NCBI GenBank assembly: GCA_027460535.1
Contig: JAPZAR010000031.1
Span: forward strand, 90,001 to 122,000
Origin: Candidatus Methanoperedens sp.
GTDB taxonomy: Archaea; Halobacteriota; Methanosarcinia; Methanosarcinales; Methanoperedenaceae
Direction: 5' to 3'
DNA: 32,000 nt
This document shows, one piece after another, positions 17,928 to 31,710 of this stretch (positions are counted from its first letter, which is position 1; every line of letters begins with the position of its first letter). The notes beneath the pieces are model-generated. The model did not search any database and was not told where the DNA came from. It saw nothing but the letters and a program-made list of their open reading frames with translations. Both the position numbers and the translations under genes were made by a program.

Positions 17928-20900
17928 CTATGCTTCGCCTCGAACAAAGTAATCTGCCAATAACTCAGCCTGCTTTAACACTGTATCAATAGCTTTTTGC
18001 TGCATATCCGGCGGATACCCGTATTTGTTTAATGTTCTTTTTACCAGTACCATTAGCTTTGCCCTTGCACTTTCCCGAATTGTCCAATCTATTGTCGCAT
18101 TAGCCTTTACCTTTTCTGCCACTTCAATTGCAATAATTCTCAATTTGTCATCACCTAAGACTTCAACCGCTGAACCATTTTCAGCAAGTGCATCATAGAA
18201 AGCCAACTCTTCTTTTGATAAACCTAAATGAGCTTCTCTTTCATCATTCTCCTTTATTTTCTTGGCAACTTCATCAACTAAAAACTGTATAATTTCTGCT
18301 GTTGTCAGCAATCCATTATTGTACTTCTTGATTGCAGTTTCAAGCATTTCAAGCAAGGCCTTGCTTTTTACAAGGTTGGTTTTTGAACGGGTTCGGATTT
18401 CATCATTGAGGATTTTCTTTAACAATTCAAGAGCCAGGTTCTGATGCTTCATACCTTTTATCTCCTGCAGAAATTCCTGTGAGAGAATGGATATCTCAGG
18501 CTTTTTTATGCCTGCCGCATCAAAAATATCTATCACCTGATCTGAACTCAACGCTTCATCAACTATCTGTTTTATGGTAGTTTCAATATCCAGATCTGAT
18601 CTGCCACCACCGTTGCCTATAAACTTTACAAGCCTTGCCTTTACAGCCTGAAAGAATGCAACTTCATCTGTTATTGCCAGCGCTTGTCCGTCTGGCACGG
18701 ATAACGCAAACGCCTGAGAAAGCATTGTGACTTCCCGGATTAAACGGTTCTTGCCATTCTCAAGACCCATTATATGTTCCTCTGCCTGTAAGATTATCGA
18801 GAGCTTTTCTTGTGGTGAAGCTGAAAAGAAACGCCTGTAATTAAAGCCCGTTCCAGGATATTTGCCATAATAAGCCGTGGGTTCCGCGATAAGGATCGCC
18901 TCTTTTGATTTGCTTTCTTCAAAGAAAAGCTGGCGCACTATTTCCAACTTCTCCAGCATTGCAGCTACTGCCTTTTCCTGCCCTTCTGCAGGGTCGCCTT
19001 TTCCACCTGAATTAGAATAAAAAGACAATGCTTTTTTAAGGTCTGTTGCAATGCCAAGATAATCAACAACCAGACCGCCAGGTTTGTCTCTAAATACCCT
19101 GTTTACCCGCGCTATAGCCTGCATCAGACTGTGGTCTCTCATTGGCTTATCAACATAAAGCGTATGCAGACAGGGCACATCAAAACCCGTGAGCCACATA
19201 TCTATGACGATGACCAGTCTTAACGGGTCTTCCGGGTCTTTCATTCTATCGGATAAATCCCTACGCTGCGATTTAGTGGTGTGATGCTTCTGCATGACTG
19301 GGCCGTCAGCACTGGATGCAGTCATGACAACTTTGATCGCACCTTTTGACAGGTCGTCATTATGCCACTGCGGTCTAAGCTTGGTGATCTCATTATAGAG
19401 GTCAACCGCAATCCTGCGGCTCATAGCCACGACCATTCCCTTGCCCTCAAATCTGGCTGTCCGCAGCTCAAAGTGTGTGACGATATCCCTTGCTAAATTC
19501 TTTATCCGTTCCGGATTCCCAACAATGGCTTCAAGTTTTGCCCACTTGGCTCTTACTCTTTGCTTGTCGGTTATTTCTTCGTCTTCTTCAAGTTCTTTAT
19601 CGAACTCTGCGATCAAGCGCTTGCCTTCCTCATCCAGATTTACTTTGGCAAGACGGCTTTCATAATAGATCTTAACTGTTGCGCCATCAGCAACGGATTG
19701 TGAAATATCGTAGATGTCAACATACTGCCCGAAAACTGCCGGGGTGTTTACGTCTGTACTTTCAATGGGCGTGCCTGTAAAACCAATGTATGTAGCATTG
19801 GGAAGGGCATCTCTCATATACTTGGCAAAGCCGTAGGCTATGCGTTTGCCGATTACATCTTTGGTTTCTTTGTCTTTTACATCAACAAGCTTTGCTTCAA
19901 AGCCATACTGGGTTCTATGCGCTTCATCAGCAATAACTACAATATTTCTTCTGTCTGAGAGCCGGTCGAATTCTGCCTTGCCTGCTTCGGGTAAAAACTT
20001 CTGGATGGTTGTAAACACAATACCGCCGGAGGCAACGTTCAGCAGTTGTTTCAAATGCTCCCTGTCTCTTGCCTGTACCGGTTCCTGCCTCAGCAACTGC
20101 TTTGAGGCTGCAAAGGTGTCAAATAGCTGGTCGTCAAGGTCGTTGCGGTCTGTGATAACTACAACGGTGGGATTGTTCAGGCTTAAAACAAGCTTGGCTG
20201 AATAGAAAACCATCGAAATGGATTTGCCGCTACCCTGTGTGTGCCATACAACACCGCCTTTGCGGTTTCCATTTGTAGAAGCTGCTTTGATTGTGTTTTC
20301 TACTGCTTTATTGACTGCATAGTATTGATGATAGGCTGCTAATTTCTTTTCAGTCTCAACCTGTGTAATGCCTGTTTTTGGATCTTTCTTCTTTGATTTC
20401 TCAAATATTATGAAATTGCAAACAAGGTCTAATAAGGTAGTGGGGTTCAGCATTCCTTTTATCAGGATCTCTAACTGTGGAATGAACCGCGATGCTTCTT
20501 TTTTGCCGTCTGCACTTTTCCATGTCATGTAGCGGCTGAATCCTGCAGAAACGCTTCCTGCCCTGCAATCCATTCCATCTGAAATAATGCAGACCTCATT
20601 GAAAGCAAATAAGCCCGGAATGGTGGCTTTGTAGGTCTGGATTTGGTCAAAGGCTTTTTTTATGGTTGCAGTTTCATCTGCTGCATTCTTCAACTCAAAA
20701 AGCACGATTGGGATACCATTGATAAAGAGCAAGATGTCAGGTCGCTTGTTCTGGTTATTCTCAACGATCGTGTACTGATTGACAACTAAAAATTCGTTGT
20801 TTGAAGGATGAGCAAAATCAATCAACGCCACTTCAAAGCTTCTTTCGTAGCCGTCCTGCTGATATGGTATTTTTATTTTCTCAATTAAGAACTGGTGAAA

Positions 20901-21170
20901 GGTTTCATTGTTGTGCAACAGGTCTGGTGAATAAATACGCAGCACTTTTTGCACAGCCTGTTCCTGTGCATCCGCAGGAATATCAGGGTTTAACTTTGCA
21001 ACAGCTTTGCGCAGGCGCTGCGTTAAAATGATCTGATCAAAACCTTCTCTCTCGGCAAACTCGGCGCCGGGGGCGATGGAAAGACCGTGGACATGTTGCC
21101 AGCCTAATGTCTTAAGTATTTCGATGGTAAAGGTTTCGATTTGTGATTCAGTGATTTTATTCGTCGTCAT
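17928..21170 (-). CDS. hsdR: Type I restriction enzyme R subunit HsdR
   Basis: 1080 aa. N-terminal nuclease motif PDILLFINGIPIVLFELK, helicase motifs HTQGSGKS and VIADEAHRTQ, and a C-terminal HsdR tail (LSKEELAFYDALAENGSAVEVLGDDKL...). Confidence 0.95.
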   Translation of the reverse strand: MTTNKITESQIETFTIEILKTLGWQHVHGLSIAPGAEFAEREGFDQIILTQRLRKAVAKLNPDIPADAQEQAVQKVLRIYSPDLLHNNETFHQFLIEKIKIPYQQDGYERSFEVALIDFAHPSNNEFLVVNQYTIVENNQNKRPDILLFINGIPIVLFELKNAADETATIKKAFDQIQTYKATIPGLFAFNEVCIISDGMDCRAGSVSAGFSRYMTWKSADGKKEASRFIPQLEILIKGMLNPTTLLDLVCNFIIFEKSKKKDPKTGITQVETEKKLAAYHQYYAVNKAVENTIKAASTNGNRKGGVVWHTQGSGKSISMVFYSAKLVLSLNNPTVVVITDRNDLDDQLFDTFAASKQLLRQEPVQARDREHLKQLLNVASGGIVFTTIQKFLPEAGKAEFDRLSDRRNIVVIADEAHRTQYGFEAKLVDVKDKETKDVIGKRIAYGFAKYMRDALPNATYIGFTGTPIESTDVNTPAVFGQYVDIYDISQSVADGATVKIYYESRLAKVNLDEEGKRLIAEFDKELEEDEEITDKQRVRAKWAKLEAIVGNPERIKNLARDIVTHFELRTARFEGKGMVVAMSRRIAVDLYNEITKLRPQWHNDDLSKGAIKVVMTASSADGPVMQKHHTTKSQRRDLSDRMKDPEDPLRLVIVIDMWLTGFDVPCLHTLYVDKPMRDHSLMQAIARVNRVFRDKPGGLVVDYLGIATDLKKALSFYSNSGGKGDPAEGQEKAVAAMLEKLEIVRQLFFEESKSKEAILIAEPTAYYGKYPGTGFNYRRFFSASPQEKLSIILQAEEHIMGLENGKNRLIREVTMLSQAFALSVPDGQALAITDEVAFFQAVKARLVKFIGNGGGRSDLDIETTIKQIVDEALSSDQVIDIFDAAGIKKPEISILSQEFLQEIKGMKHQNLALELLKKILNDEIRTRSKTNLVKSKALLEMLETAIKKYNNGLLTTAEIIQFLVDEVAKKIKENDEREAHLGLSKEELAFYDALAENGSAVEVLGDDKLRIIAIEVAEKVKANATIDWTIRESARAKLMVLVKRTLNKYGYPPDMQQKAIDTVLKQAELLADYFVRGEA

Positions 21171-22176
21171 CTTTTTTTCCTGTGATGCGCTTTATCTCTT
21201 TGTCAAAATCGGAGATGTAATTTTTATCCTGAATTTTCTTGAATCTTTCATATTCTTTATTGACCAGAGCCAGAGCAACTTCATGACTGATTTGCCCGGC
21301 ATTGGTGAGTATTTCGTATTCACTGAATTTCAGGAAGGCGTTCAGTTTTTCAATCCAATCTTTCATGTACATTGGCGAATTGCGAACCGCCTGTAATTCC
21401 GCAAAATCAAGATACATGGTAACTATGCGGTTCAAATGATCAAGCTCAGGTTTGTCTAGATAGTTTTTTGCTATGGTAACATCACCTGGCATGATTTTAC
21501 CGCCAGGTGCTTTTCGCCATGATGTCAATCCCATATTTGGCTTGTCGCTGCTGGCTCGTGTGGCTATAATTTCCGCGGCGGTCTGCCCTGTAATGGCAAA
21601 GTGCAGTTTGTTCTGTACCATCGCAAAGAACTGTTTTGTGTCCTGTGCTTTTGGCGAATAGTCAATAGAAGTGGCGTAAATATCAGTAATTTTCTGATAC
21701 AACATCCGCTCACTGGAACGGATATCCCGGATTTCTTCGAGTAAGTCGTCAAAATATCGTGCGCTGAAACGGGAACCATATTTAAATCTGTCGCTGTCAA
21801 TCGCAAAACCTTTATGAATATATTGCTGAAGAATTGAAATTGCCCATTGCCGGAACTGTGTGCCACGTTCTGAGTTAACCCTGTACCCCACCGCGATAAT
21901 TGCTTCAAGCGAATAAAACTTTGTCTGATATTCCTTGCCATCTTCGGCAGTATGTGCAAAATTTGCACATACTGAATCTTCCTCTAACTCGTTCTCAGAA
22001 AAGATGTTCTTCAGGTGCTTGGTGACAACACTACGATCTACATCGAACAGTTCCGCAATCCGCTTCTGGGGAAGCCAGATGTTTTCATTAGCGTATAGCA
22101 CTTCAATGTTGATTTTTCCATCAGGTGTTTGATAAACGGTAATTTGATTGTCGGGTAATTTTTTATTTTTGGCCAT
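21157..22176 (-). CDS. rhuM: RhuM-family (Virulence_RhuM) protein embedded in the R-M operon
   Basis: 339 aa. ITVYQTPDGKINIEVLYANENIWLPQKRIAELFDVDRSVVTKHLKNIF, YSLEAIIAVGYRVNSERGTQFRQWA. Its last 14 nt overlap the hsdR start. Confidence 0.8.
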   Translation of the reverse strand: MAKNKKLPDNQITVYQTPDGKINIEVLYANENIWLPQKRIAELFDVDRSVVTKHLKNIFSENELEEDSVCANFAHTAEDGKEYQTKFYSLEAIIAVGYRVNSERGTQFRQWAISILQQYIHKGFAIDSDRFKYGSRFSARYFDDLLEEIRDIRSSERMLYQKITDIYATSIDYSPKAQDTKQFFAMVQNKLHFAITGQTAAEIIATRASSDKPNMGLTSWRKAPGGKIMPGDVTIAKNYLDKPELDHLNRIVTMYLDFAELQAVRNSPMYMKDWIEKLNAFLKFSEYEILTNAGQISHEVALALVNKEYERFKKIQDKNYISDFDKEIKRITGKKDDDE

Positions 22177-22393
22177 ATTTTACCTTTCGTACATCCACGG
22201 AACCTCTGTTTTTTTCAGTTATTCTGCCAGTGGCTTTTCGCAGGCGTTCCAGCAGTAGATCATCTTCAAAGGAGCCACTTTCCGGTTTCTCGCCAGCAGG
22301 GGCAATGTCGGGAGCGTAGAGATACTGGTAGCCCTGCTTTTCGAGGAGTTCGATTGCGAATTTTTCGATGACGGATTCGGTAATATTGGTCAT
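22163..22393 (-). pseudogene. 5' remnant of a second, divergent hsdR
   Basis: MTNITESVIEKFAIELLEKQGYQYLYAPDIAPAGEKPESGSFEDDLLLERLRKA parallels the intact HsdR N-terminus MTTNKITESQIETFTIEILKTLGWQHVHGLSIAPGAEFAEREGFDQIILTQRLRKA. Similarity is lost after ~55 codons, and the ORF ends 14 nt into rhuM. Confidence 0.6.
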
Positions 22394-22409
22394 TGTATTT
22401 GTTTCTTAT

Positions 22410-23231
22410 TCATTGGTTTAGTTTAAGTACAGAGTTTGCCAGCCTTTTTTCATTGCCTATCGGTGTTGTGTAATATCTCTGCTCAATACCATACAATATC
22501 TTTTTAAGATGGTCGTCTGTGCTAACAAGAAATGTGTCATCTTCTACTGGAACATCTTCACAATACGACCGTATATATTGAAAAATCTGCTGTTTGTTAT
22601 CTTCTGTGAATTGGTTTAATATATCGATTGCCATTGCTATTCGCTTTCTATTGGCTGTTTTCACATTGTTGCAAGTAAATGTTTCATCAAGAGAAATGAA
22701 GTCTTGCTCCAGAAAAGCATCAACTTCGGCTTGAGTGGCTTCTCTGTAGAGTTCCTCAATACCTCTGAATATTGATTTGACTCTTGCTATATTTTTAAAG
22801 TAAAGACTGTCAGCGTTTATATCGTAAACAGCATCAACAAAACTATTGAGGATTATAATAGGCTTATCAATTTCAAGCGTTGGTTCGCTTGAAATGCGAA
22901 ACCACTTTTTATAAATTAATTGAGTTGAAGACATCTTCAGAAAAAGAAAAAAATTGCCTTGTTTGCTACATAAATAATTGATTTTAGAATATTGTCTTAC
23001 AGTTATTTGATTATAAACTGTACTATCAAAGGTGCTTCCTATAAAGTTATTCTCATAACCAAGACTTAAAAAGTTATCTAATTTAAACCATTCACCATCT
23101 TCCAACTTATATGCTGGCGAATATGCTTGACTATCTGATAAGTCAGGCAAATCAAATACGCCTCTTTGAACTGACATGACCTTCAAAAACTCTGCATTTC
23201 GACCTTTTATTTCTGCTAGTAAATAATTCAT
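22410..23231 (-). CDS. Hypothetical 273-aa soluble protein; candidate KwaB-like (DUF4868-like) defence protein, family unverified
   Basis: Start at 23231 (MNYLLAEIKG...) follows GGAAAGG; the track ORF starts 24 nt earlier inside a tandem duplication. No enzymatic motif recognised. Lies downstream of a 4-TM gene inside the R-M operon and is very AT-rich. Confidence 0.5.
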   Translation of the reverse strand: MNYLLAEIKGRNAEFLKVMSVQRGVFDLPDLSDSQAYSPAYKLEDGEWFKLDNFLSLGYENNFIGSTFDSTVYNQITVRQYSKINYLCSKQGNFFLFLKMSSTQLIYKKWFRISSEPTLEIDKPIIILNSFVDAVYDINADSLYFKNIARVKSIFRGIEELYREATQAEVDAFLEQDFISLDETFTCNNVKTANRKRIAMAIDILNQFTEDNKQQIFQYIRSYCEDVPVEDDTFLVSTDDHLKKILYGIEQRYYTTPIGNEKRLANSVLKLNQ

Positions 23232-23235
23232 AATA

Positions 23236-23290
23236 TTACCTTTCCATATCCACAAATGTATATTTACCTTTCCATATCCATAAATGTATA
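23236..23290. repeat. 28-nt tandem duplication at the junction of the TM gene and the 273-aa gene
   Basis: TTACCTTTCCATATCCACAAATGTATA (23236-23262) and TTACCTTTCCATATCCATAAATGTATA (23264-23290), one mismatch. It duplicates the last codons, stop and GGAAAGG of the upstream gene. Confidence 0.9.
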
Positions 23291-23806
23291 ATTATTGATG
23301 CGTTTTAGATTGTCAAATGCTGCGCTTTTAGGCTCTTTTATTTGCTTTCGTGTAATTAATAACACTTTGATATTCTTATTGTTCACGAGATAATAAAAGT
23401 TGAATCCAAACAGGAAAAATATCGGATTAAAATAAGAAATTCTGGAATAAAAAATAAAAATACAAATTATCCCGAAAACATAAAGAAATACCTCAATGTT
23501 TGGAATGCTTAACGCAACAAAAAAATAACCTAAATAACTTGGTAAGAATGCGTCATTGGCTGGTTCAATAACCGAGATGGAGCCTGCATCTATCGTGTCT
23601 GTGCCTAAAAAGTTAATAAGCCGCATACTCAGCCATGTAAATATTAAAACTACTACAAAATATAAAATATAAGAAATTATATTTGGTAAGCTTGAAAGGT
23701 ATGGATACAAAGAGTTTATGACAATCCCTTCTTTAATAAGAAATACAATCAACGAGAGTAATAATGAATTTAATGTCAAACAAAATTTAAAAATGTGTTC
23801 TATCAT
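23264..23806 (-). CDS. Hypothetical 180-aa 4-TM membrane protein; candidate KwaA-like partner, family unverified
   Basis: Four hydrophobic segments (FKFCLTLNSLLLSLIVFLI, IISYILYFVVVLIFTWLSM, LPSYLGYFFVALSI, VFLYVFGIICIFIFY) and a basic C-terminal tail. ATG lies 9 nt after the hsdS stop, behind AGGAGG. Confidence 0.5.
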   Translation of the reverse strand: MIEHIFKFCLTLNSLLLSLIVFLIKEGIVINSLYPYLSSLPNIISYILYFVVVLIFTWLSMRLINFLGTDTIDAGSISVIEPANDAFLPSYLGYFFVALSIPNIEVFLYVFGIICIFIFYSRISYFNPIFFLFGFNFYYLVNNKNIKVLLITRKQIKEPKSAAFDNLKRINNYTFMDMER

Positions 23807-23815
23807 TCATCCTCC

Positions 23816-25015
23816 TCACATTTCAACCCTCACTTCCCCGCTCATCAACTTCGGCAGCAGCGTATCGCGCAGGCGGGTGAGGGTGCGGATTTGGATTTGA
23901 TTGCTTTTTATTTTTTCAAAAGTTGGATTAATTATTTCATGCATTTCTTTTAATTTATTTTTTGGCGGAACTAATACCGTTGCACTTGATAAATGATGTC
24001 TTTGGATATGTCCCATTGTGGTTGCTTTATCTTCTGCTATTCCTTGAAATTCAGGTAAGTGATATTTCACCCAGAAATAATAAAACCATTGTGGAAATTC
24101 AGTTGATGAAACTTTAAATAAATGTTGATTCAAAACTCCTTTACCTTCTGACCAAATCACAATATCTAAACTACCTGACCATGAGAAAAGCATATCACCA
24201 TTATGAACCAAATATTTTTCAGGAACATCATTAGTTGCAATATCCGAAGCATCTGTAATTCCTGTTCTCAATTCTTTTATCTTGATAACAGGCAAACCAA
24301 CTTCACCGACTTTTGCTGGAAATTTCTGACAAGCTAAACCATTTAAGAACTCTGCAATTTCATCCATACCTTTTTCTTCCCACCCCTCCTCCGCCTCTTC
24401 CACAAACCACTGCCTGAACAGCGTCTCTGCCAGTGCCTCCAGGGTTTTGTTCTGGCGGTGCAGCAGGTCTATTTTGTTGTCGAGGCTGGAAAGCACAGAG
24501 GCGATGGATTGTTGTTCTAGGAGGGGGGGGACAGGGAGAAAAATTTCCTTTAAAGCAGAAAGATTTAATGTTGGCTGAACTGTATCGTTTGTGTGACTAT
24601 AGATTTGATATTTTACTTGTTCAAAAGAGAAGCAGTATTTTATAAATGATTTATCATAAGCCTCAGAAATATTGGAAACACTCACTGCTCTTGCAACATT
24701 CCAACCTTTGTAGACATTGGGGACAATTGCACATTCTCCAACACTTCCAACAACCGTTAATAAAAGTTCCCCACCCTTAAGTCTTGTTCGGGAATATTTT
24801 TTTTCAATCTCTTTATCTACCATCATCACATCAACTGAAAAAATTCTTCCGTCTTTTATGTTATTAACTCTAAGAACAGGGATACTATTGGTAACTTGAT
24901 GGAAACCGGGTTGAACAATGCCATAAGACAGACCATTCGGGATAATTATTCTCTCAAAAGGCAAGCAGTCCCAATGTTTAGGAATTAATCCAACTTTACT
25001 GTCTTTGTATTCCAT
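23816..25015 (-). CDS. hsdS: Type I R-M specificity subunit HsdS
   Basis: 399 aa with two target-recognition halves. Central conserved region LPVPPLLEQQSIASVLSSLDNKIDLLHRQNKTLEALAETLFRQWF and C-terminal IRTLTRLRDTLLPKLMSGEVRV. ATG lies 1 nt after the hsdM stop. Confidence 0.93.
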   Translation of the reverse strand: MEYKDSKVGLIPKHWDCLPFERIIIPNGLSYGIVQPGFHQVTNSIPVLRVNNIKDGRIFSVDVMMVDKEIEKKYSRTRLKGGELLLTVVGSVGECAIVPNVYKGWNVARAVSVSNISEAYDKSFIKYCFSFEQVKYQIYSHTNDTVQPTLNLSALKEIFLPVPPLLEQQSIASVLSSLDNKIDLLHRQNKTLEALAETLFRQWFVEEAEEGWEEKGMDEIAEFLNGLACQKFPAKVGEVGLPVIKIKELRTGITDASDIATNDVPEKYLVHNGDMLFSWSGSLDIVIWSEGKGVLNQHLFKVSSTEFPQWFYYFWVKYHLPEFQGIAEDKATTMGHIQRHHLSSATVLVPPKNKLKEMHEIINPTFEKIKSNQIQIRTLTRLRDTLLPKLMSGEVRVEM

Positions 25016-25016
25016 A

Positions 25017-26624
25017 TCATCCCACAGTTGTGTTATTGATATTGATTTTAGAAAGATTGTTTTGAATACGATTGTTTAATTCGGTTTCTTCGATAATTTG
25101 TTTTTCCAACTCGGTTTTCAGAGAAATAAATCGTTCAACAAAATTGAAATCATCCTCATCATCTGGCAAGCCAATATACCTGCCGGGTGTCAGTACATAG
25201 TTCAAAGTCTTTACGTCATCCAGTGCCGCTGATTTACAGAATCCCTGCACATCCTTATATTCCCCTTCACCTGTGCGCCAGTTGTGATATGTGCGCCCGA
25301 TCAATGCAATATCTTCATCAGATAACTCCCTGTTTTTGCGGTTAATCAAATGCCCCATATTACGGGTATCAATAAACAATATTTTGCCCTTGCGTTGCTG
25401 TTTGTTACGGCTCAAAAACCACAAGCATGCGGGAATCTGGGTATTCAGGAATAGCTTGGTTGGAAGATTCACAATGCAATCTATTAAATCATTTTCCACC
25501 ATAGCCTTGCGTATATCGCCTTCGTTGTTGGTTTTGGTGGTCAGTGAACCCTTAGCCAAAACAAAGCCAGCCTGCCCCGTCGGCGCCAGATGATAGAGGA
25601 AATGCTGTATCCATGCATAGTTGGCGTTGGCTGGCGGCGGCGGCAGTTTTTGTCCTAATACGCTCCAGCGCGCATCATCACGGAGCATCTCGCCGCTCCA
25701 GTCACTGTCGTTGAATGGGGGATTTGCAATGATGTAATCGGCCTTCAGATCCTTATGCATATCGTTGAGAAAAGAGCCTTCATTGTTCCACTTTACATTG
25801 CTGCTGTCAATGCCGCGGATGGCAAGGTTCATTTTGGCCAGGCGCCAGGTGGTCTGGTTGCTCTCCTGCCCGTATATTGAGATGCGGTCTTTGGGATCAA
25901 TGCTTAATTTCCTGCCATTATTTTTTTTATAATGATCCTGATGCGCCTCAATGAACTTTTCACTCTGCACAAACATACCGCCAGAACCGCAGCAGGGGTC
26001 AAAAACGCGCCCTTCATAAGGCTCAAGCATCTCAACCAGTAGCTTTACAACGCTACCCGGAGTGTAGAACTGTCCTCCCTTTTTGCCTTCTGCCAATGCA
26101 AATTCACCCAAGAAATATTCAAATACCTTGCCCAAGAGGTCTTTACCTTTTGCTTCCTTAGTACCCAATTCCGCGCTGCCTATAAGGTCAATCAAACCGC
26201 CAAGGCTCTGTTTGTCTAATTTCTCCTGTGCAAATACTCTGGGCAACACCCCTCTGAGGGAAGGGTTGTCCTTTTCGATTGCATCCATGGCTTCATCTAC
26301 ATCTTTGCCTATGGTGGGAAGCTTTGCTCGACCCTGCAACCAATTCCAGCGCGAAGAAGGGGGCACGTAAAAAACCTTTTCAGCAGTGTATTCATTCTTA
26401 TCTTCGGGGTCAGCACCTTCATAGGCGCCTTTGCCTTCTTTCAGCTTTTGATGAAGTTCGAGAAAGGCGTCAGAAATATATTTCAGGAAGATCAAGCCCA
26501 AAACAATATGCTTGTATTCGGCTGCATCCATGTTCTTGCGCAACTTGTCGGCTGCCTTCCAGAGTTTCTTTTCTAAGGGTTCATCATTGTGGTTATTTTT
26601 TTCTTTATCGAACCGGGCCATCAA
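25017..26624 (-). CDS. hsdM: Type I R-M N6-adenine DNA methyltransferase subunit HsdM
   Basis: 535 aa. HsdM N-terminal domain (LWKAADKLRKNMDAAEYKHIVLGLIFLKYISD), motif I VFDPCCGSGGMF, catalytic IIANPPFNDSDW. Confidence 0.95.
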   Translation of the reverse strand: MMARFDKEKNNHNDEPLEKKLWKAADKLRKNMDAAEYKHIVLGLIFLKYISDAFLELHQKLKEGKGAYEGADPEDKNEYTAEKVFYVPPSSRWNWLQGRAKLPTIGKDVDEAMDAIEKDNPSLRGVLPRVFAQEKLDKQSLGGLIDLIGSAELGTKEAKGKDLLGKVFEYFLGEFALAEGKKGGQFYTPGSVVKLLVEMLEPYEGRVFDPCCGSGGMFVQSEKFIEAHQDHYKKNNGRKLSIDPKDRISIYGQESNQTTWRLAKMNLAIRGIDSSNVKWNNEGSFLNDMHKDLKADYIIANPPFNDSDWSGEMLRDDARWSVLGQKLPPPPANANYAWIQHFLYHLAPTGQAGFVLAKGSLTTKTNNEGDIRKAMVENDLIDCIVNLPTKLFLNTQIPACLWFLSRNKQQRKGKILFIDTRNMGHLINRKNRELSDEDIALIGRTYHNWRTGEGEYKDVQGFCKSAALDDVKTLNYVLTPGRYIGLPDDEDDFNFVERFISLKTELEKQIIEETELNNRIQNNLSKININNTTVG

Positions 26625-26734: not shown

Positions 26735-27319
26735 TCATAATAGATGACTTTTTGTAACTTCAATAATTCGATCTAACATAATAGCTGAATTTCTAAATTT
26801 CATATCCTTTTCCTGTGGATTTCCAATTTTCTCTCTAAAACCTTGTGTTATAGAATCAAGGACAATATCCAAGTCTTCTCTTAGTTTTATCTCTTTCTCA
26901 TTTAAGACTTCATTTAAGTCAGGTTGATTTTCTGTATGATATTTCTTCATATAATTGGATATTTTAATAATTTGATTTTCAATTTCTTCTTGTGATTTCT
27001 TTTTGAAGATGTTCTTATCATTTTTAATAAAGGATATCCAATTCTTACTATTTCGTTTACTATTACAAGTAGGGCAGGACGGAACTACATTTCCTATAAC
27101 ATGAAGTCCACCAATTGTTTCTGGCCACAAATGGTCAGGCTGTAAATCTTGATCATCCTTGGAAATACCACAATAAACACAATTAGGCCCTAATTCCTCA
27201 AGTGATCTCTCAAATGCATCCTCTTGACTATGCTTCTGCAATAAAACTGATAAAATAGCCTTTCTAAATGCACCACGTCCATTTCCTAGAATTTGTGCAA
27301 TTGGTTTCGGTTTTGGCAT
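26735..27319 (-). CDS. HNH endonuclease-domain protein
   Basis: CVYCG...QPDHLWPETIGG...GNVVPSCPTCNSKRN (CxxC / DH / N / CxxC-N), followed by a Lys/Glu-rich helical C-terminal half. Own AAGGAG RBS and an AT-rich upstream box. Confidence 0.8.
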   Translation of the reverse strand: MPKPKPIAQILGNGRGAFRKAILSVLLQKHSQEDAFERSLEELGPNCVYCGISKDDQDLQPDHLWPETIGGLHVIGNVVPSCPTCNSKRNSKNWISFIKNDKNIFKKKSQEEIENQIIKISNYMKKYHTENQPDLNEVLNEKEIKLREDLDIVLDSITQGFREKIGNPQEKDMKFRNSAIMLDRIIEVTKSHLL

Positions 27320-27427
27320 TGTTTATCTCCTTTATGTTATATATTTAGTGTCACTATTACGCACAACGGTATGAGTGTTTGATTAGGACGGAACCTTTGG
27401 ATTTTAACCTGTTAAATGAAATTGCTC

Positions 27428-27446
27428 TTTGATTATACAAATCAAA
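27428..27446 (-). terminator. Stem-loop just downstream of the 341-aa gene
   Basis: TTTGATT (27428-27434), ATACA loop, AATCAAA (27440-27446), 8 nt beyond the stop at 27455. The stem is weak and AT-only. Confidence 0.3.
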
Positions 27447-27454
27447 CAACAGCA

Positions 27455-28480
27455 TCAATCTTCACCTGATTCATATGTTTCTAAAAGTAAAACCGAAACT
27501 CCCGGGCCGCCTTCATCATTCCATTGCCCTTCGTGTCTATTCGGTGGAAGGTCATTATTTGAAAAAGAAAAATCAACCAACTCCTGCAGGAAAGATCGTC
27601 TTGATGGTCGTATGCTAGGAGGCGTTGCATAGAAACACCCATCTATTTCAGATGGCGAAGCTCCTGTAGTTCTAGGTTGTTTTCCGTATTTAGAATTAGC
27701 TCTTCGAAATGCTTTTTCAGCGGAGCTTTTTAAAATGTCCCAAACGACTCTTGACCATCCATTTTCCTTAATAGCTGTTTTGCTATCATCAAATGGATCA
27801 CCGGAAAGGAGTTCCAATGAATGAACAATTTCCAATCCGAGGTCACAATGATCCATTATCGGATTGCTTGGAATGCAAGATCCGATAGGATAGGTGCATG
27901 GACTACCCAATATACCGGATTCCGGTCTTTCAGGAGGTCGGTCATCAATAAGTAGATATTGAGCGCCTCTACGTGGAGCTGAGGGCTTAACGTGTCTTGT
28001 TTGACCATTTAATGAGCCAGAAGTGACATAGGTAAATGCAGGCCACGTTGAATAAAGTTTTAATTGGTCTTTGTCATTTCCACGAAGTTTATATGGCTGA
28101 ACCGCAGACTTTTTTGCCTGATATAAAATTGCATTTCTAATTACATTTCCGTCAATATCAGAATGGACATGACACCATAATAAATCGCCGAGTTCGCATG
28201 AGTTGCCTTTCATACCGCTAAAGTTGACTTTAGGTGTCTGATGACAATAAATTCCAGTAACAACAATCCGGATTCCGAGTGAATCAAAAACATTGCGCCA
28301 TTCATTTTCAATAATTTTTGTACCATTTAAAACCAAAGATGCAACGATATCTGGTTCTTCAGGCTCATTACCTCTGATTCTACAATTATTCCATGCTTCA
28401 ATCATGCTTACTGATATTGCATATCGAGCAGAAGTAACTAGATAAGGCTTAACCTTCATAACAGTAAGCAAAAATGACAT
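27455..28480 (-). CDS. Orphan 341-aa protein with a PD-(D/E)xK-like (Mrr-type D..QxK) motif
   Basis: Long uninterrupted ORF. SCELGDLLWCHVHSDIDGNVIRNAILYQAKK resembles the E / D.DG / QxK restriction-endonuclease-fold core. The rest, including the Pro/Ser/Arg-rich C-terminal third, is unrecognised. Confidence 0.6.
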   Translation of the reverse strand: MSFLLTVMKVKPYLVTSARYAISVSMIEAWNNCRIRGNEPEEPDIVASLVLNGTKIIENEWRNVFDSLGIRIVVTGIYCHQTPKVNFSGMKGNSCELGDLLWCHVHSDIDGNVIRNAILYQAKKSAVQPYKLRGNDKDQLKLYSTWPAFTYVTSGSLNGQTRHVKPSAPRRGAQYLLIDDRPPERPESGILGSPCTYPIGSCIPSNPIMDHCDLGLEIVHSLELLSGDPFDDSKTAIKENGWSRVVWDILKSSAEKAFRRANSKYGKQPRTTGASPSEIDGCFYATPPSIRPSRRSFLQELVDFSFSNNDLPPNRHEGQWNDEGGPGVSVLLLETYESGED

Positions 28481-28941
28481 GTTCCTTCATCTCTATTATT
28501 ATATGCTCTTGCGTTCGCTTTTTGCACATTACTCGTTCATATCCGAACTCGATTCGAATATAGGTTCTTTTGCCTGAATACCAATTCCTTACTCATCAAA
28601 TACCACCTCGCATTATATTTGTCTAAAGGATTTTTTATTCTGCTTAATTCTATATTACTCACATATGTATAAGAGTTCCTCATAATAGTGAATTTAAACC
28701 ATAATACTAATGGTGGCCTTAGTCATGCAAATGCATGGCTTATCAGTGCACAGTTAATTATTTCAGGTGCAGGAACAGTAAGACAAAAGCCTTTATAACA
28801 AAGATCGCACACATGGTCGAAAAGGAAGCCATCAACCCATCCCAGGTCCTTCATCACCATACATTCCTATCTCGCAGTGGATAGCTTTCAACCGAGTTCT
28901 TGACCAGCTTGCCGTACTTCTTCTACCTTCTCATCTCCATG

Positions 28942-29085
28942 GTGAACAGGGTCTTCAATCAAAATAATCCCATAGCCCTTCATATCCAGCAGCCCCATCA
29001 CCCTATTCCTCTCGCCAGCCATCTTGAATCTATAGCAGGACTGTCGCCCAACCGCAGGCGGATTCGGGCCGAACGGGCGGCGGGG
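28942..29085 (+). repeat. Copy A of the ~115-bp V-W-X repeat (decayed hsdS-3'-like segment)
   Basis: GTGAACAGGGTCTTCAATC ... CCCATCACCCTATTCCTCTCGCCAGCCATCTTGAATCTATAGCAGGACTGTCGCCCAACCGCAGGCGGATTCGGGCCGAACGGGCGGCGGGG. Matches copies at 30168, 31289, 31459 and 31573. Confidence 0.85.
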
Positions 29086-29108
29086 GTTTGATGTGGTTGC
29101 CCGGGGTG

Positions 29109-29147
29109 CATATCGGCACCAAGGGATTAATATTTTTTAAGTGATAC
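29109..29147 (+). promoter_or_regulatory. Promoter-like module P1 (diverged core + TATA-like box) upstream of the MNT gene
   Basis: CATATCGGCACC, AAGGGA, TTAATATTTTTT, AAGTGATA. Same layout as P2-P5. Confidence 0.5.
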
Positions 29148-29188
29148 ATGTCTTCGACCCTTCCTGCACCCCAATTCTTAAATATTAT

Positions 29189-29226
29189 TGTTCACATATA
29201 TGAACATATGTTCAAAAAAATGAACG
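29189..29226. promoter_or_regulatory. Tandem palindromic operator candidate: TGTTCA-N6-TGAACA twice
   Basis: TGTTCA (29189-29194) CATATA TGAACA (29201-29206) TA TGTTCA (29209-29214) AAAAAA TGAACG (29221-29226). Overlaps the candidate start codons 29208 and 29220. Confidence 0.5.
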
Positions 29227-29747
29227 TATTCTCAAAGCCCTCCATACAAATAATACAATATCTTGGCAGGAGATATCGAGATGGCTACTATGTCCGCGAG
29301 ATATCAAGAAATCTTGGTATCGGTCTGGGATCAGCGAGCCAGAGCCTGAGAACGCTCGAAGAAGCCGGACTCGTTTTAAAAGAGCACAAGGGCAGGCTGG
29401 TAATATACAGGGCGAACATGCAAAATTTCGTGCTCAGGGAGTTCAAGATACTTCTCACCCTTCTGGAAATATATCCGTTCATCTTGCCCTTAAAAAAAAT
29501 CTCTTCAAGGATCATCCTATTTGGAAGCTGTTCCGCAGGGGAGGACACAATAGACAGCGATATCGATATTTTCATTGAATCCGATAATAAAAGAGATGTT
29601 TCCATGCTTCATGACCGTTATTGGGAAGAGATCCCCAGGAAGATATCTCCCATTATTCTGGACGCCTCTGAATTCAGGAACCTGGAGGCTAAAGACAGAC
29701 CACTTTTCGAAAGGATTAACATTGGAAAAGTAATCCATGAAACATAA
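29208..29747 (+). CDS. wHTH + minimal nucleotidyltransferase (MNT) protein, antitoxin-type partner of HEPN
   Basis: The N-terminal wHTH (VREISRNLGIGLGSASQSLRTLEEAGLVLKEHKGRLVIY) is followed by the NTase motif ILFGSCSAGEDTIDSDIDIFI. The start is probably 29208 or 29220, because the track start at 29148 lies too close to the TATA-like box. Confidence 0.8.
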   Translation: MFKKMNVFSKPSIQIIQYLGRRYRDGYYVREISRNLGIGLGSASQSLRTLEEAGLVLKEHKGRLVIYRANMQNFVLREFKILLTLLEIYPFILPLKKISSRIILFGSCSAGEDTIDSDIDIFIESDNKRDVSMLHDRYWEEIPRKISPIILDASEFRNLEAKDRPLFERINIGKVIHET

Positions 29748-30172
29748 TGAGATATCAGTTTGAACAGTGCATTGACAAAGGTAAGATAGTAAAAATCGAA
29801 ATAGCCTCTGATCTAATATCTAAAGAGATCGATGAGGCAAAAAACGATCTTAATTCATGCGAGAGATCCATACAGGAAAGTAACTTCAAATGGGCGATAA
29901 TCCAGGCATATTATTCCATGTTTCACTCATTTAGAGCCCTTATTTTCAGCAAAGGCTATAGAGAAAAAAGCCACACTTGCATAAAATACGCAATAGAATC
30001 TCTTTTTGTGGACACAGGCGCTCTGGATAACCAGCTCTTACAGGACTTTAGCTATGCCATGAAGGTCCGGGAAGGAGCGGATTATGGAAGTGTATATGGT
30101 AAAGACTCTGCGCTGGAATTGCAGATCTCAGCAGGTAGAATATACGAAGTAGCTAAAAGGTTAATTTCATAG
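29747..30172 (+). CDS. HEPN-domain protein (toxin-type partner of MNT)
   Basis: 141 aa. WAIIQAYYSMFHSFRALIFSKGYREKSH ... AMKVREGADYG (HEPN R..(A)DY region). TAATG overlap with the MNT gene. Confidence 0.8.
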   Translation: MRYQFEQCIDKGKIVKIEIASDLISKEIDEAKNDLNSCERSIQESNFKWAIIQAYYSMFHSFRALIFSKGYREKSHTCIKYAIESLFVDTGALDNQLLQDFSYAMKVREGADYGSVYGKDSALELQISAGRIYEVAKRLIS

Positions 30173-30320
30173 CCCTTCATATCCAGTAGCCCCATCACCC
30201 CATCCCTCTCGCCAGCCATCTTGAATCTATAGCAGGACTGCCGCCCAATTGCACGCTCGAAGCCTGACCCGCGAGAGGTTGTGGAGGCGGTGGTGAGTGG
30301 GGTGCTTGAGGAAGAATCGC
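30168..30320 (+). repeat. Copy B of the W-X repeat fused to a shortened hsdS-3'-like tail
   Basis: CATAGCCCTTCATATCCAGTAGCCCCATCACCCCATCCCTCTCGCCAGCCATCTTGAATCTATAGCAGGACTGCCGCCCAA..., then GCGAGAGGTTGTGGAGGCGGTGGTGAG (compare 30861-30890). It begins inside the last codons of the HEPN gene. Confidence 0.8.
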
Positions 30321-30392: not shown

Positions 30393-30611
30393 ATGGTAAA
30401 AGCGATAGTGAATATAAACGAAAGAGCCAACAGGGTATTAAATATAGTAAAAGCAAAACATGGTTTGAAAACCAAATCTGAAGCTATTAATAAAGTGGTA
30501 AGTGAGTATGGAAAATCACTTCTTGAACCTGAACTGGATATTCTCAAAACTTGCAAAGAGAGATCCGAAAAAGATGCGGATGATCGAGAAAAAGATAAAA
30601 CAGATTTGTGA
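30393..30611 (+). CDS. Small antitoxin-like protein
   Basis: MVKAIVNINERANRVLNIVKAKHGLKTKSEAINKVVSEYGKSLLEPEL... From memory this N-terminus matches small archaeal antitoxin-like proteins (DUF2683-type, unverified). The last ~36 codons overlap the toxin gene out of frame. Confidence 0.55.
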   Translation: MVKAIVNINERANRVLNIVKAKHGLKTKSEAINKVVSEYGKSLLEPELDILKTCKERSEKDADDREKDKTDL

Positions 30612-30765
30612 AAAACCTCTGCATTTCAAACCCTTAAGAGCGCCGATGCAGCATTTGCGAAGAGTCCATATTGATAAAAGCTTTGTCTTAACCTATTCAG
30701 TCAATGAGAAAAATAAAGTTGTGGTAATAGAAGATTACGATCACCATGATAAAATCTATTTATAG
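30502..30765 (+). CDS. RelE/ParE-superfamily toxin
   Basis: ...FSKLAKRDPKKMRMIEKKIKQICEKPLHFKPLRAPMQHLRRVHIDKSFVLTYSVNEKNKVVVIEDYDHHDKIY. The start is uncertain (30502, 30508 or later). Confidence 0.7.
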   Translation: MSMENHFLNLNWIFSKLAKRDPKKMRMIEKKIKQICEKPLHFKPLRAPMQHLRRVHIDKSFVLTYSVNEKNKVVVIEDYDHHDKIYL

Positions 30766-30783: not shown

Positions 30784-30930
30784 ACCGCATCGCCGCCAGA
30801 CCAGCTCGTGCCCCTCTGCGATAAGCTCGAAGCCGGACTCCTGCGCTCGCAGGCGGACAGCGAGAGGTTGATGGAGGCGGTTGGAGGATGCTGGCGGGGC
30901 TTCGGGAACATATCGGCGCAGGGAGTTTAA
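30784..30930 (+). pseudogene. 3'-terminal remnant of an hsdS of a different family from the intact one
   Basis: The frame reads ...ASPPDQLVPLCDKLEAGLLRSQADSERLMEAVGG..., the C-terminal conserved helix pattern (…L.ALCD.LEA.L…) of many HsdS proteins. No target-recognition domain lies upstream; the frame opens only at 30769. Confidence 0.5.
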
Positions 30931-30950
30931 TATTTTTGAAGTGATATAAG
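30899..30950 (+). promoter_or_regulatory. Promoter-like module P2
   Basis: GCTTCGGGAACATATCGGCGCA, GGGAGT, TTAATATTTTT, GAAGTGATA. No ORF follows it. Confidence 0.45.
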
Positions 30951-31003
30951 ATGTGATAGAACACGGAGCGCACTGATAACACAGAGTGGCATGGATTAAA
31001 ATT

Positions 31004-31038: not shown

Positions 31039-31210
31039 TTCCATTCTTCGAACCGCCTCCCCCCACAAAAAGAAGCAATAACCGTTTCCCCGCCCCCCAT
31101 CGCCGCCGCCTGCCCCGCGCCATCGCCAGCACTATCCCTCATCGGATAGCTCTCAACCGGAGTTCGCTGTTGATTCTGAGTAAACGCGCTGTCCCATAGG
31201 CCGTGAGGCT

Positions 31211-31260
31211 GCTTCGGGAACATATCGGCGCCGCGAGATTAATATTTAAAGAGAGATAAA
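31211..31260 (+). promoter_or_regulatory. Promoter-like module P3
   Basis: GCTTCGGGAACATATCGGCGCC, GCGAGA, TTAATATTTAAA, GAGAGATA. The core is identical to the inverted copy at 17197-17218. Confidence 0.45.
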
Positions 31261-31288
31261 TGTGCGGTGCGCAAAGGACGCGAAGCAT

Positions 31289-31407
31289 GCCCCATCACCT
31301 TATTCCTTTCGCCAGCCATCTTGAATCCATAGCAGTGCAGGACTGCCGCCCAACCGCAGGTGGATCCGAGCCGAATCTCGGTTTTGATGCGAGGTGGTTA
31401 CCTGGGG
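31289..31407 (+). repeat. Copy D of the W-X repeat (5'-truncated)
   Basis: GCCCCATCACCTTATTCCTTTCGCCAGCCATCTTGAATCCATAGCAGTGCAGGACTGCCGCCCAACCGCAGGTGGATCCGAGCCGAATCTCGG... Confidence 0.8.
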
Positions 31408-31458: not shown

Positions 31459-31710
31459 GTGAACAGGGTCTTCATTCAAACTAGGGTCATAGCCCTGCAT
31501 TTCCGGCAACCCCATCACCCTATTCCTCTTGCCCACCATCTTGAATCCATAGTAGGACTGTCGCCCAACCGCAGGGGTCTTCAATCAAAATTAGACCATA
31601 CCCCTTCATATCCACCAGCCTATCACCCCATCCCTCTCACCGGCCATCTTGAATCTATAGCAGGACTGTCGCCCAACCGCAGGCGGATTCGGGCCGAACG
31701 GGCGGCGGGG
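31459..31710 (+). repeat. Copies E and F of the V-W-X repeat, head-to-tail
   Basis: E spans 31459-31575 and F spans 31573-31710. The junction is ...CCCAACCGCAGG|GGTCTTCAATC, so the X end joins the V start at a shared CAGG. F ends with the same GCGGATTCGGGCCGAACGGGCGGCGGGG tail as copy A. Confidence 0.85.

Follow-up and report, generated by a model that had tools for sequence, protein, structure and literature searches.

In a 32,000-nucleotide (nt) stretch of Candidatus Methanoperedens sp. DNA (GenBank assembly GCA_027460535.1, contig JAPZAR010000031.1, positions 90,001 to 122,000 of the forward strand; hereafter the window, in which all positions below are counted unless another locus is named), we identified a gene for a 341-amino acid (aa) protein on the minus strand (27455-28480) that belongs to a large, unnamed and horizontally mobile family. 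Members of this family recur in defence islands, and inside or directly beside ATP-dependent restriction-modification (R-M) operons of types I and III, and the gene is a good candidate for a new antiviral function. From the motifs and the predicted secondary structure, a RecB-type PD-(D/E)xK fold is the most likely reading of the protein, and one that we favour with some reserve. The fuller proposal is that the protein would be a DNA nuclease of the PD-(D/E)xK superfamily that depends on metal, carries RecB-type motifs and is expressed from its own cassette, and that it would act on its own as a companion or back-up defence effector alongside R-M systems; taken as a whole, we regard this proposal as evenly balanced, its catalytic activity and its defence role being inferred, whereas the cassette structure and the genomic context are shown. 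Such an effector might cut DNA that escapes R-M, as type IV enzymes do, or it might fire once the R-M system has been disabled. What is new here is the unannotated family, while its kind is known, namely a nuclease-like gene that stands alone in defence islands and in restriction operons.

The coding sequence begins with the ATG at 28480 and its translation contains the patch SCELGDLLWCHVHSDIDGNVIRNAILYQAKK, from which an Mrr-like nuclease had been proposed in an original prediction made from the sequence without database searches. Upon re-reading, the coordinates given there for this open reading frame (ORF) and for its HNH neighbour, and the location of the patch, proved exact, while residues that had been numbered approximately as E98, D101, Q127 and K129 are in fact E96, D99, Q121 and K123. 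The NCBI record begins the protein at M8 (334 aa; 28459-28480 region), but the 341-aa start at 28480 is preferred because homologues keep the MSF/MSL N-terminus that lies upstream of M8 and is common to them.

The protein had also been called an orphan, a term that holds only in the sense of being unannotated. A first search returned 117 clusters at 90% identity, nearly all of them full-length at about 340 aa and none named or labelled by Pfam, and a profile search of 1.84 billion cluster representatives (50% identity) identified 1,302 representatives at E<=1e-3 and 381 at E<=1e-30. Nearly all of the 1,302 are single-domain proteins of 300-350 aa, and the extra parts of the longer family members contain no Pfam domain. 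Among GTDB species representatives the family was found at 49 loci in at least 15 phyla, archaea included, with representatives among Bacteroidota, Lachnospiraceae, Planctomycetota, Pseudomonadota, Acidobacteriota, Nitrospirota, Actinomycetota and candidate phyla, and a metagenome scan added 239 further relatives. Given a pairwise dN/dS against relatives of 0.16-0.25 and the 1,302 matching representatives, the window gene is real and under purifying selection. Truncated or frameshifted copies account for 7 of 56 non-redundant ones, and the family constitutes a real, selected and patchily distributed accessory gene. A phage or plasmid origin was rejected on the absence of the family from 50,697 phage genome records and from IMG/VR contigs, together with a single weak match among 72,556 plasmid records, which lies on a 2.5-Mb replicon.

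Pfam annotation of the window verified the type I R-M operon that had been predicted downstream of the gene and in the same orientation (17928-26624, minus strand). This operon comprises hsdM, hsdS, two unannotated ORFs, an N-terminal hsdR fragment, rhuM and hsdR (HsdM 25017-26624; HsdS 23816-25015; RhuM 21157-22176; HsdR 17928-21170), and an identical gene order is present in a public Candidatus Methanoperedens sp. contig. The family gene of the window stands beside the operon, upstream of the HNH gene and hsdM, and is not embedded in it. The expectation of a defence island was likewise borne out, as the window holds type I R-M, HNH, MNT/HEPN and ParE genes. Beyond the window, about ten loci place the gene beside type I restriction genes (six of these arrays were mapped with hsdR), and one places it behind a type III operon. 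In L040 (Azonexus) and L137 the order is hsdM-hsdS-gene-hsdR with gaps of 10-34 nt, in L144 hsdM-hsdS-gene is followed by hsdR-like DNA, and in L036 (Arenimonas) the order is hsdR-hsdM-hsdS-gene with a GmrSD-like gene behind and overlapping stop and start codons. Also identified were a copy between hsdM and hsdR (L109), an arrangement like that of the window with the gene ahead of hsdM-hsdS-hsdR (L146), a copy separated from hsdR by one gene (L115), a truncated copy behind hsdM (L059), and, in a Bacteroidota genome, a copy 19 nt behind the mod and res genes of an EcoP15I-like type III system (L029). A further member, L034, lies near a DrmMI-type methylase, a TIR effector and PDC-S15. Among metagenome loci of 5 kb or more, 6 of 38 are linked to R-M genes, as are 4-6 of about 54 genome loci. 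Eight R-M-linked family proteins, from the window and seven type I loci, keep all ten key residues; because they are only 31-41% identical to one another, these associations must be old or independent.

Per-gene Pfam labels are available for ten loci, and at 8-9 of these the family member has defence, toxin-antitoxin or mobile-element genes only a few genes away. Clustering of neighbours within four genes on either side at 53 non-redundant loci revealed no universal partner, since no cluster was present in more than 4 of the 53, and the top cluster was HsdM; SMC/ABC-type ATPases were found only sporadically and not as a general partner. A pooled scan of 280 neighbours (three genes on either side, 52 loci) counted ResIII/helicase domains 7 times, AAA_21 6 times and SMC_N 6 times, several DNA methylases, and Mrr_cat, KwaA, KwaB, HSDR_N and ParE twice each. 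DrmD, DrmA, DpdE and BrxH-like helicases likewise lie nearby, as do cytochromes, ferredoxins and transporters; overall, R-M, helicase, SMC/ABC ATPase, Kiwa, Mrr and toxin-antitoxin families are abundant among the 280.

The position of a gene inside a type I R-M, BREX or DISARM operon predicts a defence function, as has been validated experimentally (bioRxiv 10.1101/2024.01.29.577857; PMC11411939). The family shows the genomic behaviour of PrrC (EcoprrI), TgvAB (V. cholerae VPI-2) and the R-M/BREX/DISARM-embedded candidates reported by Payne et al.: at least eight independent and divergent instances lie behind hsdS, between hsdM and hsdR or at an edge of the operon. Unlike those embedded genes, it represents a different family that is neither GmrSD, ABC-ATPase nor HEPN, and most of its copies are solitary cassettes. 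No PADLOC v2.0.0 model matched the 341-aa protein, the models for Hma-embedded (HEC) and PDC candidates included.

We examined residue conservation over 258 distinct family members. The E / D / QxK residues that had been singled out originally proved near-invariant (E96 99%, D99 100%, Q121 and K123 99%), as are G98 and L119 (both 100%), whereas the proposed "D.DG" element corresponds to D108 and D110, which are kept in 45% and 16% of members, respectively, and is no motif. Conserved but absent from that first list of motif residues are E42 (98%) and the pair Q139-x-x-x-Y143 (100% and 98%). High conservation was also observed for D44 (97%), C79 (94%), H80 (98%), P83 (99%), W146 (99%), P147 (98%), G172 (99%), Y175 (97%), and G227 and W242 (both 100%), while S329 and E334 are conserved in 87%.

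A full-length AlphaFold2 model generated from a 98-sequence alignment (pLDDT 88.8, pTM 0.90) predicts one compact unit in which only residues 261-328, a low-confidence linker, are poorly defined, and a second model restricted to residues 36-185 was of similar quality (pLDDT 90.6, pTM 0.80). Both contain a helix at 42-67, strands at 70-77, 100-107 and 113-124, a helix at 136-145 and a strand at 149-152. After the low-confidence stretch, a C-terminal strand (residues 329-337, GVSVLLLETYE; codons at 27470-27496, minus strand) is modelled with pLDDT 82-88. Approximately 95 residues on the N-terminal side of the patch and 200 on its C-terminal side had been described as matching nothing known; they are indeed without matches, but they are conserved in the family and predicted to fold with the patch as one unit. 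Similarly, the acidic end that had been noted on the tail belongs to the conserved and confidently modelled C-terminal strand, GVSxxLxETxE.

The helix and strand order of the two models equals the alpha-beta-beta-beta-alpha-beta order of the restriction-endonuclease-like core, a one-dimensional match on which the conserved residues fall at the expected positions. The codons of E42-P43-D44 (28349-28357, minus strand) begin helix 42-67 and supply candidate nuclease motif I, and residues 96-143 (28052-28195, minus strand) carry candidate motifs II and III and the QxxxY motif in strand-strand-helix order. Candidate motif II, E96-x-G98-D99, lies just ahead of strand 100-107, such that D99 directly precedes the second core strand; candidate motif III, Q121-A-K123, closes the third (strand 113-124); and Q139-x-x-x-Y143 lies within helix 136-145, 16 residues after K123. 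In the models, an antiparallel hairpin with a 5-residue turn would place D99 opposite Q121. A ββα core bearing motifs II, III and QxxxY has been defined previously, and QxxxY has been called characteristic of nucleases in the RecB family and of type I HsdR subunits (PMC2475608). The HsdR encoded in the window offers a direct comparison, reading PD-ILLFINGIPIVLF-ELK-x14-QIQTY (with PD to ELK also x14) against GD-x21-QAK-x15-QLKLY in the family protein, and the spacing from lysine to glutamine is accordingly 15 in the family and 14 in HsdR.

The same ordered motifs are shared by the nucleases of the RecB family (RecB, Cas4/AddB-type PDDEXK_1, lambda-exonuclease/YqaJ, Exo5 and HSDR_N), namely a helix upstream that bears an acidic residue, (G/P)-D where a strand begins, (E/Q)-x-K on the next strand and QxxxY in the following helix. 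In contrast to these nucleases, the family protein has Gln in place of the acidic residue of motif III and a longer hairpin between motifs II and III, adds CHQxP, WP and GAQYLLID elements, and possesses a C-terminal half of about 150 residues whose final strand returns to the core. It also has neither an Fe-S cysteine cluster nor a fused helicase, and displays no significant profile or structure similarity to them. Weak, non-significant Foldseek matches nonetheless recur in nucleases of the RecB/Cas4/lambda-exonuclease type, comprising two phage proteins of the PD-(D/E)XK superfamily, a phage exonuclease, ASFV D345L, UL24, Exo5 and NotI, the last two in the PDB search at E of about 0.3 and TM of about 0.2.

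Several results weigh against a RecB-type defence nuclease. Pfam, NCBIfam, PADLOC and PHROG scans of the 341-aa protein gave no match, and in the PDB a sequence search with the protein itself returned only a laccase (E=0.47), while one with the profile returned nothing. Foldseek searches of PDB with the full-length and trimmed models found nothing at E<=1e-3, and the top PDB matches of the trimmed model were alpha-carbonic anhydrases at TM 0.17 and rmsd 14, which are spurious. Profile-profile comparison by hhalign of 258 family sequences with 112 HSDR_N sequences gave a probability of 1%, and on the motif windows D99 and QxxxY were paired correctly but QxK and ExK were offset, at a probability of 0.3%. 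The proposed clustering of the conserved residues in space would follow from the hairpin register of the models alone. As to the defence role, about 85-90% of loci lack adjacent R-M genes and some lie among metabolic genes (e.g. L009), and the enrichment of defence genes, counted without a matched control, is semi-quantitative. Further searches were also negative: 98 members scanned singly against Pfam at E<=10 shared no recurrent weak match, and Foldseek against BFVD with the full-length model gave nothing significant, the best match being UL24 at E=0.08 with PD-(D/E)XK proteins at E 0.65-6.

These results leave room for an alternative, unlikely in our estimation though to be taken seriously, in which the protein is not a nuclease and the D, QxK and QxxxY residues coincide by chance on a new or unrecognisable fold. 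The protein would then have another role linked to mobile DNA or R-M, e.g. in regulation, in restriction alleviation or anti-defence, or as a ligand-binding enzyme. Such a view would account for confident models (pTM 0.90 and 0.80) that have no significant neighbour in PDB or BFVD, for the lack of profile-profile similarity to two genuine PD-(D/E)xK families, and for the conserved elements outside the classical motif set, which comprise C79-H80-Q81-x-P83, W146-P147, R162, GAQYLLID and W242. Furthermore, some copies lie in mobile elements beside RadC, T4SS or replication genes, where anti-defence genes are also found. Against it stand six residues of the right chemistry, 98-100% conserved, in the right order on the right structural elements and with RecB/HsdR-like spacing. 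PD-(D/E)xK families are moreover known to escape both sequence and Foldseek detection, and because Foldseek is weak for this superfamily, the missing significant match does not exclude membership. A phage anti-defence gene in particular is disfavoured by the absence of the family from the 50,697 phage genomes and IMG/VR. A papain-like or arylamine-N-acetyltransferase Cys-His hydrolase, raised by weak PDB matches (USP also among them), was rejected because C79, C95, H104 and H106 are lost in a Bacteroidota subgroup, while E42, E96 and D99 remain almost unchanged there (98-100% over all 258 members).

Although the protein had been assigned to the Mrr type, membership of the Mrr family fails. Comparison by hhalign with a 48-sequence Mrr_cat profile gave a probability of 1% with the motif unaligned: between the 98 family and 48 Mrr_cat sequences only 16 C-terminal columns align, and these do not contain D99 or QxK. 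No stretch other than the C-terminal strand was matched to catalytic strands of Mrr and HsdR by hhalign, and its match is not significant. Pfam Mrr_cat (PF04471) was found neither in the window protein at E<=1 nor in any of the 98 members at E<=10. The D...QxK pattern of Mrr_cat is present (D99 100%, Q121 99%, K123 99%), but it is common to many PD-(D/E)xK families and not specific to Mrr. With Mrr the family shares this form of the motif and its existence as a solitary gene without a cognate methylase in defence islands; it differs in possessing QxxxY, which the Mrr consensus lacks, and no Mrr_N-type DNA-binding domain was detected in the family protein. The RecB-type nuclease that we propose would thus be type IV or Mrr-like in being methylase-independent and solitary, yet lie outside the Mrr family. 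A genuine Mrr_cat gene lies two genes from the family member in locus L006.

The gene had further been put forward as a candidate for a single-gene or two-gene immune system, in the latter case as an Mrr-type nuclease acting together with the adjacent HNH endonuclease. The neighbour is real, with the 194-aa protein (26735-27319, minus strand) matching Pfam HNH_5 (E=1e-9), HNH (E=4e-8) and numerous PHROG HNH families. In favour of a two-gene system, both genes lie side by side on one strand with 135 nt between them, the D...QxK layout is reminiscent of Mrr, and in PADLOC the HNH protein gives weak PtuB and PDC-M01B matches (best PtuB, E=1.2e-4). However, homologues of the window HNH protein were found near other family members at none of 58 loci (phmmer, approximately 10 kb) and at none of 73 metagenome loci, i.e. 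at 0 of 131 other loci, and HNH does not figure among the Pfam families that recur in the neighbourhoods. The Mrr_cat profile probability of 1% also speaks against the pairing, as does a break in homology between the two genes, the homology of the cassette ending 45 nt before the HNH ATG. The co-occurrence data practically refute this system, and we consider it scarcely tenable. Septu (PtuA with PtuB) was rejected as well, the PtuB match being weak and no ATPase gene lying beside the HNH gene in the window. The HNH gene has no match in plasmids.

This break in homology supports a suspicion voiced in the original prediction, that the two genes are independent units. Close relatives at 83-84% identity (L004/L005, L062 and L063) have neighbours other than HNH, and their nucleotide homology to the window by blastn (84-85% with L004, L062 and L063) spans just 28705-27364 (for L063, 28688-27409). 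The conserved cassette accordingly begins 225 nt upstream of the ATG and runs 91 nt beyond the stop, 45 nt short of the HNH start codon. Beyond 27364 the relatives run into a small ORF that they share, while the window runs into the HNH gene, a separate cassette with its own AT-rich box and a Shine-Dalgarno-like AGGAG. The 341-aa gene is therefore an autonomous single-gene cassette of about 1.35 kb, and the HNH gene is an unrelated neighbour.

Homology to the same relatives (L004, L062 and L063) and column identity define a constrained non-coding 5' flank (28481-28705, minus strand). Its 225 nt show 87% mean column identity, whereas synonymous sites in the coding sequence diverge by 30-37%, and because the flank is better conserved than those sites it must be under constraint. 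A conserved ORF in the flank is excluded by indels of 4, 1 and 2 nt. The flank is probably a promoter or regulatory region and not an RNA element: a structured RNA was rejected at z = -2.2 versus shuffles, with no compensatory pairs in four sequences. The conserved 3' flank (27364-27454, minus strand), which likewise is better conserved than synonymous sites, lies within the 135-nt spacer (27320-27454), where a weak AT-rich hairpin of 6-7 bp was found at 27428-27446, as had been noted originally. In the relatives, a perfect 11-bp inverted repeat, GAGTGCTTGAG-N25-CTCAAGCACTC, stands right behind the stop (around 9071-9117 in L004; L062 and L063 have equivalents) and could be a terminator or a recombination site. 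A 10-nt deletion (27411/27410) has removed its 5' arm from the window, close to the synteny break with the relatives, and the 3' arm survives at about 27373-27383.

What follows the gene in these relatives raises another possibility. Lamassu systems are ordered as effector, small protein and ATPase, and in L004/L005 and L062 ORFs of 44-66 aa come next after the family gene, and then a protein of about 805 aa that matches PADLOC LmuB at E=3e-25 (small-ORF/ATPase blocks at 9150-11754 in L004 and 7984-10715 in L062). The window homology breaks exactly where the relatives enter the small ORF, so that the family protein might be an LmuA-like effector of a Lamassu-like SMC-ATPase system whose partner has been lost from the window. 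A Lamassu system consists of LmuB, which is SMC-like, the small LmuC and an LmuA in which diverse N-terminal effectors (Cap4, Mrr, HNH and others) are joined to a C-terminal domain (PMC12663957), and the family protein is similarly built of an N-terminal nuclease-like module followed by a C-terminal module. Nevertheless, the LmuB-like gene is limited to L004/L005 and L062, which represent one event because they share 88% nucleotide identity over 4.2 kb; it is absent from the window, from all 73 metagenome loci and from the equally close L063 (84% identity), which has no ATPase. The inverted repeat separates the family gene from the small ORFs, PADLOC LmuA models gave no match at E<=1, and the small ORFs are themselves a point against this interpretation, typical LmuC proteins being much longer than 44-66 aa. 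We consider membership of a Lamassu-like system very improbable. The L062 block lies between a Mre11-Rad50-NurA-HerA operon and three toxin-antitoxin pairs, and that of L004 inside an element with MCM, primase and SNF2 genes.

Returning to the proposed companion of restriction systems, the closest view of its relation to an R-M operon comes from L040 and L137. Between these loci HsdM and HsdR are 88% and 94% identical, respectively, but HsdS and the family protein only 26% and 37%. At the DNA level, an identity of 89% is lost about 100 nt ahead of the hsdM end and returns with the first base of hsdR; the block in between (L040 8810-11028 and L137 6607-8988), which consists of hsdS and the family gene, is unalignable apart from 47 nt inside hsdS. 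Operons of the L040/L137 class thus have the gene as a resident fourth member that is swapped, or diversifies, jointly with hsdS. This co-variation may be caused by recombination between the conserved flanks, or by coupling to HsdS.

Such coupling is central to a narrower version of our proposal, in which the protein would be a latent effector attached to the type I or III complex and, like the anticodon nuclease PrrC, inactive until a phage anti-restriction protein disables the enzyme. In the EcoprrI locus prrC occupies the slot after hsdS and before hsdR, and this slot is also that of the gene in L040, L137 and L144 (in the last, before hsdR-like DNA). The gaps to neighbouring genes are 10-34 nt or the genes overlap, and the gene varies with the specificity subunit, as an interacting partner might. 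On the other hand, recombination between the hsdM and hsdR flanks explains the co-variation equally, and the window gene lies outside its operon with flanks of its own. Because about 85-90% of loci have no R-M genes next door, the protein must be able to work alone. On these grounds a PrrC-like latent effector appears to us doubtful, yet deserving of attention.

The remainder of the window adds to the character of the island. Divergent from the 341-aa gene, on the plus strand, Pfam identified a pair consisting of an HTH-nucleotidyltransferase (MNT) and a HEPN gene (29148-30172) and a ParE-like toxin overlapped by a small ORF upstream of it (30393-30765), which lend the island further defence or addiction character. 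The same region contains a dispersed intergenic repeat of approximately 120-210 nt in five or six copies, all in one orientation (28942-29151, 30139-30262, 30892-30951, 31204-31375, 31459-31590 and 31567-31698), one of which takes up a large part of the interval that separates the 341-aa gene from the divergent MNT gene. The repeat has the core ...CGCCAGCCATCTTGAATCTATAGCAGGACTG... and gives rise to spurious ORFs with the peptide HHPIPLASHLESIAGLSPNRR; an Rfam scan of the entire window, repeat included, found no family. Within the R-M operon, two ORFs of 281 and 180 aa (22410-23255 and 23264-23806, minus strand), neither with a Pfam match, are closely packed between hsdS and rhuM/hsdR and are candidates for embedded genes themselves. 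Upstream of rhuM, a 76-aa ORF (about 22163-22393, minus strand; 7983-8213 in L060) is weakly similar to the N-terminal domain of HsdR, which suggests a duplicated or left-over 5' fragment of hsdR from the insertion of rhuM into the operon.

Since the family is without a name, a domain model or a structural neighbour, every copy is at present labelled "hypothetical protein", and a family model built from the present alignment could annotate these genes. If the protein is a nuclease that backs up restriction, it would add a new and easily testable single-gene module to the catalogue of defence systems, and the "embedded gene" rule would extend from Hma, BREX and type I operons to a new family and to a type III operon. 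A bolder formulation, which we put forward as an unlikely one, is that the family represents an unrecognised, widespread single-gene defence nuclease, a strongly diverged or new elaboration of the restriction-endonuclease fold, that in one class of type I operons co-diversifies with HsdS. If true, this would imply physical or functional coupling to the restriction complex, and the protein would be a DNA-targeting counterpart of the PrrC guard principle. The co-variation with HsdS provides a handle on the long-standing question of how accessory genes couple to the restriction enzyme they accompany.

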